Shown here: positions 31,629-34,440 of the stretch, one piece after another
Layout: every line of letters begins with the position of its first letter
How positions within the stretch are numbered: position 1 is the first letter of the stretch
Sequence record: PQ569687.1
Direction: 5' to 3' (one strand)
Source of the DNA: Klebsiella phage vB_Kpn_K54_rec1
Length of the DNA stretch: 64,000 nucleotides
Translations under genes and position numbers: made by a program
The notes under the pieces: model-generated
Told to the model about the DNA's origin: nothing
Database searches by the model: none
Seen by the model: the letters and a program-made list of their open reading frames with translations, nothing else

Positions 31629-31657
31629 TTGACAGCCGTTTCGAATAGCATTAAAGT
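31629..31657 (+). promoter_or_regulatory. consensus-like sigma70 promoter TTGACA-N17-TAAAGT
   Basis: Perfect -35 hexamer, 17-bp spacer and an A/T-rich -10, about 60 nt upstream of a strong RBS (CAGGAG) and ATG 31716. Confidence 0.55.
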
Positions 31658-31715
31658 GTATCACATGAAGACGAGAGACCTCGCTTCAAAATAACTTCAC
31701 AAACAGGAGAACGAA

Positions 31716-33746
31716 ATGACCGCAAAATATGAAACCGTACCTTACGCTGACTTCGTAAAAGCTCTGAAAGCTCAGTTCGCTGTCATGCAAGCGCTGGGTG
31801 CGCTTTACACGGTCGATGTACCGAAAGATGAACTGTACGATCTGTACCTCGACTCTTTCCCGGAAGGCACCAATCTGATGTATAAAGAGCGCCGTGAATA
31901 TGACTGTAACTGCTGCAAGAGCTACATCCGTACTCTGGGCCGAGTAGTCGCGATTCACAACGGCAAGCTGGTCTCTATTTGGGACGTTAAAGTTGGTGGT
32001 TACTACCAAGTTGTTGCCGATGCGATGAAAGCGCGTGTTGAAAGCGCCGAGATCCGCGATCGCTTCTTCCACTTCGAAGGCCGCGTTGGTACTGAGAGCA
32101 ACGTAGTTCTCCTGGAAAATGGGAAAACCAAAACCTGGACCCACTTCCATCAGGCCCTGCCTCGCGAACTGGTTAAACGTGGTGAAGATATCCCTTCTGC
32201 CCTGGGTGAGTACCGTGACAACGCAACTGTGCTGGCACGTTCTCTGAAAGATATCGATATGGACTCTGCCGAAACGGTAATGGACCTGATCAACCAAGGC
32301 TCTCTGTACCGTGGTGATGAGAAAAAGCACATTGTTGCTGCCTTTATTAAGGCGAAACGTGCATACGACAAAACGCCGGAAGATCAGCGAATGAACTTCT
32401 GCTGGAAACAAAGTGAAACGCTGGGTAAACTGGGCCGCTTCCGTAATGATGTCATCGGTACACTGATGAGCGATCTGGCAGAAGGTATTGATCTTGAAGC
32501 CGCAGTGAAGTCCTTTGAAGACAAAGTCTCAGGGACCAACTACAAGCGTACTACAGCTCTGGTAACTCCGGGCATGATCAAGGCAGCACAAGAGAAGGTT
32601 GAAGCCCTCGGCTTGACTGAATCTCTGGCACGTCGCTTTGCGGTGACCTCTGACCTGACGATCAACAACGTGTTGTTTGCTGACCGTTCTGCAAAGGCCC
32701 AGATGAACGTATTCGAGCAACTGGCAGCGTCAACCAAAAACGCGCCGAAGTCACTGTCGAAAGTAGAAGAGATCAGCATTGAGGATTTCATCAACAACGT
32801 TCTGCCGAAAGCGGACACTATCGAAGCGCTGGTTGAAGGTCGTCTGACACCGAACCTGATGAGCCTGGTTGCCCCGGCAAACGCAGGTGCTCCTAACCTG
32901 TTTAAATGGGATAACGGCTTCTCCTGGTCGTATAATGGCGAAGTAACTGACTCCATCAAGGAGCGTGTGAAAGCCGCTGGCGGTAGCGTGAGTGGTGACC
33001 TGCGTGTTTCGTTGTCCTGGTACAACAGTGATGACCTCGACCTGCACGTATTCGAGCCTGGTGGTGGTCAAATTTACTTCGGTAACAAACGTGGTCGCTC
33101 AACGGGTACGCTGGATGTGGATATGAATGCCTATGGCAAGTCAGACGCACACCATCCGGTTGAGAACGTTACGTGGGAAAATGAGCGTAATATCACGGAA
33201 GGTGTTTACAAGGTTGTTGTTAACAACTATAATAAGCGCATGACTGATCGCGTTGGCTTCGAAGTACAGATGGAATACAAAGGCCAAGTGTTCAACTTTG
33301 CATACCCGCAAGCTTTGGGTAATAGCAAGAGCCAGACCGTTGTAACCTTTAAGTATTCTCGTGCGAAAGGTGTTGAAATTGTAGACAGCATCGGGCATAC
33401 TAAGCAATCTAAAGAAGTATGGGGCGTCTCTACCGAGACCTTCCAGAAAGTTTCTCTGGTGCTGAATTCTCCTAACTTCTGGGATGGTCAGACCAAAGGT
33501 AACAAACACTACTTCTTTATGCTGGAAGGTTGCATTAACCCTGACGATACTCGTGGCTTCTACAATGAGTATCTGCGTGACGAGCTGCATGAGCATCGTA
33601 AAGTGTTCGAAGTGTTGGGTTCCAAGCTCAAAGCTGAACACTCCACTGATCAACTGAGCGGCCTGGGCTTCTCGTCTACCCAACGTAACGAGTTGGTTGT
33701 GAAGGTTACTGGTTCTTTCAACCGCACCCTGAAGATTAAATTCTGA
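31716..33746 (+). CDS. large hypothetical protein (676 aa) with strikingly host-like optimal codon usage
   Basis: The long ORF is rich in CTG/CGT/CCG/GAA/AAA codons, unlike the neighbouring phage genes. No catalytic motif recognised; a CNCC cysteine cluster lies near the N-terminus. Confidence 0.6.
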   Translation: MTAKYETVPYADFVKALKAQFAVMQALGALYTVDVPKDELYDLYLDSFPEGTNLMYKERREYDCNCCKSYIRTLGRVVAIHNGKLVSIWDVKVGGYYQVVADAMKARVESAEIRDRFFHFEGRVGTESNVVLLENGKTKTWTHFHQALPRELVKRGEDIPSALGEYRDNATVLARSLKDIDMDSAETVMDLINQGSLYRGDEKKHIVAAFIKAKRAYDKTPEDQRMNFCWKQSETLGKLGRFRNDVIGTLMSDLAEGIDLEAAVKSFEDKVSGTNYKRTTALVTPGMIKAAQEKVEALGLTESLARRFAVTSDLTINNVLFADRSAKAQMNVFEQLAASTKNAPKSLSKVEEISIEDFINNVLPKADTIEALVEGRLTPNLMSLVAPANAGAPNLFKWDNGFSWSYNGEVTDSIKERVKAAGGSVSGDLRVSLSWYNSDDLDLHVFEPGGGQIYFGNKRGRSTGTLDVDMNAYGKSDAHHPVENVTWENERNITEGVYKVVVNNYNKRMTDRVGFEVQMEYKGQVFNFAYPQALGNSKSQTVVTFKYSRAKGVEIVDSIGHTKQSKEVWGVSTETFQKVSLVLNSPNFWDGQTKGNKHYFFMLEGCINPDDTRGFYNEYLRDELHEHRKVFEVLGSKLKAEHSTDQLSGLGFSSTQRNELVVKVTGSFNRTLKIKF

Positions 33747-33958
33747 TGAAAACGGGGTTGCAACCAACCCCGGTAACTGATAGACTCGTTGCATGTCTGG
33801 AGGGGTTCGCTCCTCCAGAAAATCCTTACCAAAGGATATGCAATGAGTTCGGGTGTGCGTACATAACTGCAAAGAAAATGTTGCACTCCTTTACGTACCG
33901 GGCAACTGAACAACAATTGGCTGCGATTCTTGAAGAACGCAGCATACTGAAAAACTAA
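33746..33958 (+). CDS. hypothetical small protein (70 aa)
   Basis: ATGA overlap with the 676-aa gene; low confidence. Confidence 0.3.
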   Translation: MKTGLQPTPVTDRLVACLEGFAPPENPYQRICNEFGCAYITAKKMLHSFTYRATEQQLAAILEERSILKN

Positions 33959-33975
33959 AAGAGGAGAACAAAAAT

Positions 33976-34395
33976 ATGTCAATCATCAACACTACCATCG
34001 CAAATGCCGCTACCCTGTTCGAACTGGCTACCCGTAAAAAACTGCGTTTTGCAAGCCCGAAAGGTCTACTGACCACAGAAGATCTGTGGGATCTGCCGAT
34101 GACTGGTAATACCAGCCTGGATACGGTTTCCAAACTGGCTAACCGTGATGTGAAAGCATCTGCTGAAGAAAGTTTCGTTGTCGAGGCCAGTGCTGTAAAT
34201 GGCGAAGCAAACCTGAAGCTGGATATCCTGAAGTACATCATCTCGGTGCGTAAAGCGGAGATCGCGGATCGCCAGGCAGCGAAAGAGAAGGTTGAGCGTA
34301 AGCGTAAACTTCTGGACCTGCTGGCAGAGAAGGATAACGAGAAAGATGCAGCGATGTCTCGTGAAGAGATCCTGAAAGAGCTGGAATCTCTGTAA
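33976..34395 (+). CDS. hypothetical coiled-coil protein (139 aa), host-like codon usage
   Basis: AAGAGGAG RBS; charged heptad-like C-terminal half; the same codon bias as the 676-aa gene. Confidence 0.55.
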   Translation: MSIINTTIANAATLFELATRKKLRFASPKGLLTTEDLWDLPMTGNTSLDTVSKLANRDVKASAEESFVVEASAVNGEANLKLDILKYIISVRKAEIADRQAAKEKVERKRKLLDLLAEKDNEKDAAMSREEILKELESL

Positions 34396-34405
34396 TCTGC
34401 CCGCC

Positions 34406-34426
34406 AAGGCCCTTCGGGGCCTTTTT
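34406..34426 (+). terminator. rho-independent terminator AAGGCCC-TTCG-GGGCCTT followed by TTTTT
   Basis: GC-rich hairpin with a UUCG tetraloop and a T-tract, directly after the 33976 gene. Confidence 0.7.
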
Positions 34427-34440
34427 GTGTTGGAGGATAA

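Follow-up and report, generated by a model that had tools for sequence, protein, structure and literature searches.

What could two phage proteins do that appear to be produced at capsid-like levels, are encoded among replication genes, and have no relative of assigned function? This question is raised by a transcription unit of Klebsiella phage vB_Kpn_K54_rec1, located within the 64,000-nucleotide stretch of sequence record PQ569687.1 that was analyzed here (the window). The unit is bounded by a promoter and a terminator, and encodes a 676-residue protein (gene A) and a 139-residue protein (gene B) (Table 1). It was first singled out in an initial annotation made from the sequence, which noted the unusual codon usage of both genes and assigned neither a function. 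Our best, although tentative, reading is that A and B would form an abundant, host-independent complex of the replication phase that acts stoichiometrically.

Codon usage provides the first indication of abundance. When A, B, and the other 88 window open reading frames (ORFs) of at least 60 residues were scored by codon adaptation index (CAI, Escherichia coli weights), B (0.551) and A (0.504) gave the two highest values, corresponding to z-scores of ~4.5 and ~3.7 relative to the remaining ORFs (mean 0.27, standard deviation 0.07, maximum 0.458). The bias is uniform along the length of A, and both values approach those obtained in a closely related phage for the major head protein (0.68) and the decoration protein (0.61), the tail sheath of that phage scoring 0.38. 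The same signature is observed in Kuttervirus GG32 (A 0.50, B 0.56, neighbors 0.20–0.38), Henunavirus Hena1 (0.54, 0.56, neighbors 0.20–0.38), and Certrevirus PBES02 (0.57, 0.62, neighbors 0.23–0.37), while in high-G+C bacterial loci the G+C content at third codon positions (GC3) of A and B is the highest or near-highest. Because the bias recurs in GG32, Hena1, and PBES02, high expression is its likely cause, and in several phage families selection favors very strong expression of A and B. The statement of the initial annotation that the pair uses host-like codons more consistently than every other gene in the window is borne out by the computed index, and its suggestion of very high expression is made likely by the recurrence in three other phage genera. 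An ORF of 205–209 residues runs antisense to B, is longer than B, has a CAI of 0.17, and has counterparts in many related loci; such a frame is not a gene and only mirrors the codon bias of the B frame.

The initial annotation also offered recent acquisition from the host as an explanation of the codon usage. Apart from the codons themselves, only a G+C content of 49%, above the window mean of 45%, speaks for such a capture. The closest relatives of A are phage genes, with 552 phage records identified by tblastn, and there are no Enterobacteriaceae among the best 80 of the 132 bacterial loci found in a scan of one genome per species (all bacterial locus counts below refer to these 80). Furthermore, since the bias is common to orthologs in three other phage genera, it is old and maintained by selection. 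We therefore give recent host capture almost no credence.

The second indication, that A and B work together, comes from their genomic association. A profile of B was run against six-frame translations of A loci, and B was found directly adjoining A in 80 of 80 bacterial-genome loci and in 80 of 80 IMG/VR viral loci representing 44 lineages, where it lies downstream of A in 78 cases and is usually less than 110 nt away. In the window the two genes share a strand, with B starting 229 nt 3′ of A and a 70-residue gene between them. Adjacency is also seen in phiCbK (047/048), Ma-LMM01 (gp013/gp014), GG32 (gp051/gp050), Hena1, VIK251, PBES02, and two metagenomic phages. A–B is an ancient, obligate gene pair. 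Clustering of the neighbors in the 80 bacterial and 80 viral loci gave no third conserved partner and nothing in common beyond A and B. The most widespread of the other families reach no more than 7 of the 44 viral lineages and no more than 6 of the 80 bacterial loci, the recurring viral neighbors being superfamily 2 (SF2) helicase, ATP-dependent DNA ligase, family-A DNA polymerase, Thg1-like and RlaP RNA-repair proteins, phosphoribosyl pyrophosphate (PRPP) synthetase, and Nampt.

A natural comparison is provided by six short forms of A (~530–560 residues), encoded by Xanthomonas phage FMYAK-P1, Rhizobium phage RHph_X66, Variovorax phage VBv52, Vibrio phage D69, and the jumbo phages MJ359 and 2050HW. 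These proteins retain profile positions ~3–400 and 560–660, joined by a short linker, and all six lack exactly one part of the long form, a β-sandwich resembling TerD. B was found within 3 kb of none of the six, even at E ≤ 10. Overall, B is present at 169 of 170 long-form loci and at 0 of 6 short-form loci (Fisher's exact test, p = 1.8e-10). Because the presence of the sandwich tracks the presence of B, the simplest reading of this co-occurrence is that B works with the TerD-like insertion of A, probably by binding it.

What A is built from gives less guidance. Over residues 9–676 it matches positions 3–673 of the 673 in PHROG 1735 (E 5.1e-298), a family catalogued as of "unknown function," and all 120 homologs listed, with identity down to 52% and including one at 98% (P0001), carry precomputed matches to PF26675, which indirectly places A in the Pfam family DUF8224. 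Searches with A, B, and isolated A domains gave nothing above threshold in Pfam, NCBIfam, or PADLOC, and nothing significant emerged when PDB sequences were searched with the single sequence of A or with profiles of A and B. An AlphaFold2 model (predicted local distance difference test score (pLDDT) 83.5, predicted template modeling score (pTM) 0.47) divides A into five domains (Table 1), and a fold search found a structural relative for the TerD-like domain only. The view of the initial annotation that neither protein has a recognizable function therefore still holds after profile, PDB-sequence, and fold searches. It had also pointed to an N-terminal CNCC cluster. This cluster is present (D63-C64-N65-C66-C67), with C64 and C67 alone conserved across the family as a CxxC motif, and the N-terminal domain may hold a Cys2-His metal site. 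Within the sandwich, the conserved acidic and amide residues are D439, D440, D442, D467, D469, N471, E483, and N484.

Several labels carried by A homologs, and one lead of our own, were tried and set aside. "DNA-directed RNA polymerase," used in GenBank records, has no counterpart among Pfam, NCBIfam, or PDB-sequence matches, and there is no polymerase among the fold matches. "SAP domain" and "ATP-binding cassette" were not reproduced at family thresholds, and no Walker A motif was seen on reading. An OTU or papain-like cysteine peptidase was considered for the N-terminal domain, which shows no papain-like fold with a Cys-His-Asp triad.

The sandwich itself does fold like TerD, and this raises the possibility that A–B is a Ter-like stress or superinfection-exclusion module that protects the infected cell, or a bacterium bearing the pair, from rival phages or chemical stress. 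Ter components are found in jumbo and other phages, and a role against superinfecting phages has been proposed (PMC7824862). Mobility of the pair among Micromonosporaceae (described below) would also suit such a module. Yet the similarity is confined to the fold: the TerD Pfam model (PF02342) gives no match at E ≤ 10 with the isolated domain from three homologs, and none with whole A. There is no linked TerB, TerC, TelA, or von Willebrand factor A (vWA) partner, no membrane segment was seen in A or B on inspection, and capsid-like expression combined with core-gene status in whole families of virulent phages would be unusual for exclusion. On balance, we find a Ter-like protective role improbable.

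B matches positions 3–132 of the 132 in PHROG 2018 with residues 12–139 (E 2.7e-43), and this family, too, is catalogued as of "unknown function." Its N-terminal region carries the motif FExAxRxKLRF..G.L..EDLWDLPL, and the pattern of its C-terminal segment (S.EEL...L..L) looks helical. The only recurrent Pfam signal is DUF1192, a family of unknown function found in 5 of 42 members. A GapR-like (DUF2312) DNA clamp was considered and rejected, with a PDB profile E of 0.1, an hhalign probability of 2%, and PF10073 not among the first 25 of 42 families listed (42 members).

The distribution of A argues for a task that does not depend on the host. The 552 phage records cover hosts of several phyla, and identity to the window protein is 73% in Henunavirus, 55% in Certrevirus, ~52% in Ackermannviridae, 50% in phiCbK-like Caulobacter phages, 42–47% in Alteromonas and Vibrio phages, 41–43% in Bacillus cereus-group phages, 38% in Microcystis phage Ma-LMM01, 31% in Bacillus phage SP-15, and 30% in Cellulophaga phages. 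A profile search recovered 9,668 clusters (at 50% identity) with E ≤ 1e-3, of which 2,276 have E ≤ 1e-30; nearly all of the best 150 of the 9,668 are 650–700 residues long. Many of the bacterial copies are in Micromonosporaceae, myxobacteria, Bradyrhizobium, and Sericytochromatia, at ~42–51% identity (~42% for the actinobacterial proteins).

Among Micromonosporaceae, a single 90%-identity cluster of 279 members takes in the A proteins of Salinispora, Micromonospora, and Verrucosispora, and a single cluster of 314 takes in the B proteins, with Dactylosporangium and Actinoplanes represented. Here a block of 2.7–2.8 kb consisting of A, B, and short flanks shows ~91% nucleotide identity among ten genomes of several genera but is set in unrelated DNA, which indicates horizontal movement of a two-gene cassette that carries no recognizable mobility gene. 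Its neighbors include remnants of IS481 and DDE transposases, regulators, and metabolic genes. The flanks of the Micromonosporaceae, Bradyrhizobium, and Enhygromyxa copies contain no phage structural genes; insertion sequence (IS) elements, regulators, and metabolic genes are found instead. Local G+C of the Micromonosporaceae block is 65–70%, apparently below expectation for these genomes.

Such a discrete block with unrelated flanks could mean that A–B is itself a selfish element, able to move among the genomes of phages and bacteria as a new type of transposase or homing system, and the conserved flexible loop of A with an invariant Tyr and Arg (N-Y-K/Q-R) would speak for this idea. We consider this very unlikely. 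The edges of the block are ragged, without obvious terminal repeats; the fold searches with A brought up neither a nuclease nor a recombinase; and codon optimization together with a fixed position in the replication module is the opposite of what is seen for the selfish HNH genes of the window (CAI 0.17–0.26).

When the pair is expressed is known from one phage. In the infection transcriptome of Ma-LMM01, the orthologs of A and B (gp014 and gp013) fall in cluster 2, subclass B5, a middle class that also holds replication, recombination, and nucleotide-metabolism genes (PMC5780444, supplementary file 4). The "early" label of the initial annotation is thus doubtful. Middle expression also bears on whether A and B are virion components, such as capsid decoration or internal proteins, an explanation that draws on their head-protein-like CAI. 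In CsCl-purified virions of the Vi01-like phage Sajous1, two proteins named "putative DNA-directed RNA polymerase" were detected with 3 and 1 spectra (PMC10892097). The same laboratory uses the label "DNA-directed RNA polymerase" for the A ortholog of FrontPhageNews, and the Sajous1 proteins may correspond to A. Compared with 924 spectra for the major capsid protein, these counts are at contaminant level, and the 8 proteins detected in phiCbK virions do not include A (PMC3556154). The gene belongs to the replication module, is preceded by a sigma-70-type promoter, and runs on the strand opposite to the structural genes. The initial annotation had allowed that profile searches might place the large protein in a well-known family, for example of capsid or decoration proteins; Pfam, PHROG, and fold searches matched A to no capsid or decoration family or fold. 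Together, these observations leave a virion role with hardly more to recommend it than host capture.

The most serious competitor is an anti-defense role, which the initial annotation had put forward together with host takeover. A keeps a conserved position among genes for replication and for the maintenance of nucleotides and nucleic acids. Across phages its neighbors encode DNA polymerase, clamp loader, ribonucleotide reductase, ThyX, ligase, and helicase, or act in RNA repair and nicotinamide adenine dinucleotide (NAD) salvage. Abundant A–B might act as an anti-defense sponge or decoy that shields a phage molecule or sequesters a conserved immune signal, for example a nucleotide-derived second messenger. 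A sponge that acts stoichiometrically would have to be abundant, and the only recognizable domain is like TerD, which has been proposed as a ligand-sensing domain of the Ter system (PMC7824862). NAD+ salvage genes lie near A in the window (a NadR-like gene at 35724), in Rhizobium phage RHph_X66, and in Vibrio phage D69; RNA-repair genes (RtcB, polynucleotide kinase (PNK), Thg1-like, RlaP) recur as well; and the bacterial cassette sits in variable regions with IS elements. The recurrence of NAD+ salvage genes may be meaningful or may simply reflect the clustering of metabolic genes.

Other properties of the pair fit anti-defense poorly. Known anti-defense proteins are small, fast-evolving, and patchily distributed, unlike a 76-kDa protein that is 40–50% identical across phyla. 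The short forms keep the N- and C-terminal domains without the TerD-like domain, which implies a core function independent of it. The pair is of middle and not early class in Ma-LMM01, and its presence in bacterial chromosomes and in phages of Gram-negative bacteria, Gram-positive bacteria, and cyanobacteria argues against a host-specific factor. No homology to known anti-defense or defense proteins was found: in PADLOC-DB 2.0, A has no match, and B and the 70-residue ORF give chance-level matches (E 0.38 and 0.037), although no anti-defense library was searched. We judge anti-defense to be unlikely, while ranking it above the other alternatives discussed here.

Adjacent to the short-form A of two phages unrelated to each other, an NMNAT/NUDIX gene and Nampt are found in RHph_X66, and NMNAT and PnuC genes in D69 (loci L100 and L102). 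In RHph_X66, an RtcB RNA ligase gene is located immediately upstream.

The reading of A–B as a replication-phase complex can be put as follows. Host RNA polymerase would read a single unit comprising the promoter, A, a small inserted gene, B, and the terminator, and this unit would yield large amounts of A and B that work together as a complex. A would be a cytoplasmic five-domain protein with a putative Cys2-His metal site and a TerD-like sandwich, probably Ca2+-binding, inserted before the C-terminal domain, and the 15-kDa B would most likely dock on that insertion. The pair would thereby constitute an ancient, self-contained module of many large virulent phages, co-expressed with replication and nucleotide-metabolism genes. 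We hypothesize that its job is host-independent and directed at a universal substrate, such as nucleic acid, a nucleotide-like ligand, or a metal. Because expression is capsid-like, stoichiometric action is probable, so that A–B would bind, sequester, or scaffold something common to all hosts and would not serve as a trace enzyme. Complex formation, metal binding, and the link to replication are likewise inferred.

Several observations weigh against this reading of A–B. First, physical contact between A and B is deduced from gene co-occurrence, and Bacillus phage SP-15 encodes a long-form A without an adjacent B. Second, no biochemical activity can be assigned, four of the five A domains have no structural or sequence relative among those searched, and for the remaining domain the silence of PF02342 is accompanied by acidic motifs (DDLDLH, LDVDMN) that differ from the Ca2+ motif of TerD. 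Third, A and B are not markedly basic (pI 6.5 and 5.7), and because they are near neutral a simple DNA-coating role is unlikely. Fourth, the CAI values rest on Sharp–Li weights for E. coli and not for Klebsiella, and the timing evidence comes from a single distant phage, Ma-LMM01. Finally, NAD+ salvage and RNA-repair neighbors are frequent, a context that also fits counter-defense.

Direct reading of 31629–34430 confirms the consensus promoter, strong ribosome-binding site, and UUCG terminator of the initial annotation. Its description as a two-gene operon stands for A and B and fails on the number of genes, as a third gene of 70 residues lies between them. Within the window, a single copy of the exact string TTGACA-N17-TAAAGT is present where 0.04 would be expected. 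Judged by generic sigma-70 criteria the promoter reaches 10 of 12, and the region holds no excess of matches of this kind (14, compared with an expected 11.5), so it is position and not statistics that gives the promoter its weight. It is identical in Mydovirus VIK251, and sigma-70-like promoters precede A in PBES02 and Hena1 as well. A strong terminator likewise follows B in GG32, Hena1, and PBES02. In Cronobacter phage PBES 02, the 61-nt A–B gap holds a further promoter close to consensus (TTGACA-N17-CATAAT, 11 of 12), and B may therefore be transcribed more strongly than A in this phage.

The 70-residue gene between A and B has an ortholog of the same length in Erwinia phage Hena1, and because their differences are distributed 4:4:20 over the three codon positions, the ORF encodes a real protein under purifying selection. 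Over this gene the two phages are ~87% identical in DNA and ~89% in protein, compared with only 73% for the A protein. It was found in Mydovirus and Henunavirus only, being absent from PBES02, GG32, phiCbK, Ma-LMM01, and the metagenomic phages, and thus looks like a lineage-specific insertion into an otherwise tight A–B junction. It has weak PHROG matches only, and one GenBank record apparently labels it "transposase-like."

Two strong RNA hairpins, the second with a UUCG loop, lie within this ORF, immediately 3′ of the A stop codon, and are not followed by a T run on the plus strand. Folding of 33740–33980 gives z = −5.8 relative to shuffled sequence, and the first 100 nt of the ORF (33746–33845) contain 3 differences from Hena1. 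The hairpins may be an RNA processing, stabilizing, or attenuation site that sets the A:B ratio. Rfam searches of the leader and intergenic region gave no match at E ≤ 1. Read on the minus strand, the first hairpin resembles a terminator.

Table 1. Position of the transcription unit, its component parts, and other features mentioned in the text. Coordinates refer to the window unless a locus is given.
Feature	Position	Strand	Description
Sigma-70-type promoter	31629-31657	+	TTGACA (31629-31634), N17, TAAAGT (31652-31657); in the 95-nt gap before A (31621-31715)
Shine-Dalgarno of A	31705-31709	+	AGGAG, 6 nt 5′ of ATG at 31716
Gene A	31716-33746	+	676 aa, 75.9 kDa, pI 6.5; PHROG 1735, DUF8224 (indirect)
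A, N-terminal α/β domain	31716-32180	+	Residues 1-155; conserved CxxC (C64, C67) and WxH (H143); putative metal site
A, helical domain	32181-32615	+	Residues 156-300; then conserved N-Y-K/Q-R loop (275-278)
A, middle α/β domain	32616-32972	+	Residues 301-419; disordered stretch 326-348 (AlphaFold2)
A, TerD-like β-sandwich insertion	32973-33410	+	Residues ~420-565; DDLDLH (439-444), LDVDMN (466-471), VEN (482-484)
A, C-terminal α/β domain	33411-33743	+	Residues 566-676; SPNxWD and RGFYNEYL..ELxEHRKVFE; kept in short forms
70-aa gene	33746-33958	+	Start overlaps A stop (TGATG); CAI 0.20
RNA hairpins	33753-33772; 33797-33818	+	Inside the 70-aa ORF
Terminator-like reading of first hairpin	33772-33753	−	Followed by TTTT
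Shine-Dalgarno of B	33961-33966	+	GAGGAG, 9 nt 5′ of ATG at 33976
Gene B	33976-34395	+	139 aa, 15.4 kDa, pI 5.7; PHROG 2018
ORF antisense to B	33891-34520	−	205-209 aa; not a gene
Intrinsic terminator	34406-34430	+	AAGGCCC-UUCG-GGGCCUU (34406-34423; 7-bp G+C-rich stem), then T run
DNA polymerase gene, three annotated pieces	26529-28568; 29283-29618; 30333-30731		Within 26529-31384
HNH endonuclease genes	28699-29148; 29741-30232; 30722-31384		Between polymerase pieces
NadR-type NMN adenylyltransferase and PnuC-like genes	35724-36812; 38811-39518		1.3-4.4 kb downstream of B
70-aa gene ortholog, Hena1	Locus L016, 4534-4746		
Extra promoter, PBES 02	Locus L018, 4505-4533		
Micromonosporaceae A-B block	~5750-8580		Loci L042, L045, L051, L053, L054, L061, L062, L070, L074, L078, L085

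The window belongs to a Klebsiella Mydovirus (Vequintavirinae), and a 3.2-kb region is 99.5–100% identical to ~20 Mydovirus phages of Klebsiella, Proteus, Raoultella, and Escherichia. The operon is within the replication module, 3′ of a DNA polymerase gene split by HNH genes and 5′ of genes for a NadR-type nicotinamide mononucleotide (NMN) adenylyltransferase and a PnuC-like protein. The polymerase gene of the window is under active colonization by homing endonucleases; in the related phage KpS11, it has fewer interruptions. The window is collinear with vB_Kpn_K54_rec2 (PQ569688.1), and the two sequences differ. Coordinates match around the operon, 15 mismatches occur in the first 20 kb, and the register is lost further on, differences that fit the mosaic, recombinant character of this phage genome set.

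How new is the pair? The initial annotation had called the large protein possibly novel. It belongs with B to families that have already been catalogued (DUF8224, PHROG 1735, and PHROG 2018) and have never been characterized. A search of the full-text literature found no paper that mentions DUF8224, PF26675, or DUF2135, and nothing on gene A was found in proteomic and transcriptomic literature on Vequintavirinae. For the obligate A–B pairing, the long/short dichotomy, the conserved expression signature, and the mobile actinobacterial cassette, no published description was found. We entertain, with some reserve, the idea that A–B is an unrecognized two-protein machine in which largely new folds and an obligate partner tied to a TerD-like Ca2+ module are produced at capsid-like levels during replication in thousands of virulent phages, ranging from myoviruses of enterobacteria to Bacillus phages and cyanophages, and which also travels between actinobacterial chromosomes as a 2.8-kb cassette.

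If this is true, the activity of A–B would represent a new functional class, for which a protective sponge, a replication-factory scaffold, and a new complex for handling nucleic acids or nucleotides are candidates. It is rare for a 76-kDa protein that is 40–50% identical across phages of unrelated phyla, made at capsid-like levels, and accompanied by a constant small partner to have no known function, and the family apparently runs throughout well-studied groups such as Ackermannviridae. Defining what A–B does would at once annotate these genes in hundreds of phages used in therapy or as models, and could expose either a step common to phage replication in general or a counter-defense of broad action. 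The comparative results indicate which two proteins should be considered jointly and which domain B probably contacts, and the short forms provide natural controls.

Comparison with known systems places A–B at some distance from each of them. The TerD family (PDB 2kxt, 2qz7, and 2qng) shares the fold of the A sandwich at only 14–16% identity. In A this fold is an insertion within a 676-residue protein, no Ter partners are nearby, and the remaining four domains bear no relation to Ter proteins. Pfam DUF2135 gives a sub-threshold match of less than 50 residues in the same sandwich, scoring 12.3 bits in the window protein and 16.6 bits in the homolog from SP-15 against a curated cut-off of 22, making the DUF2135 label in the record of Klebsiella phage KpS11 unreliable. 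The core domain of pneumovirus M2-1, a Zn-finger transcription processivity factor, also counts among the nearest comparisons. Phage sponges of immune signals of the Tad1, Tad2, and Acb2 type offer a functional analogy in their high expression and in the possible ligand-binding domain of A. No sequence or fold similarity of A to these sponges was found, although no anti-defense library was searched. With its five domains A is several times their size, and it differs from them further in its need for a partner protein and its much stronger conservation.

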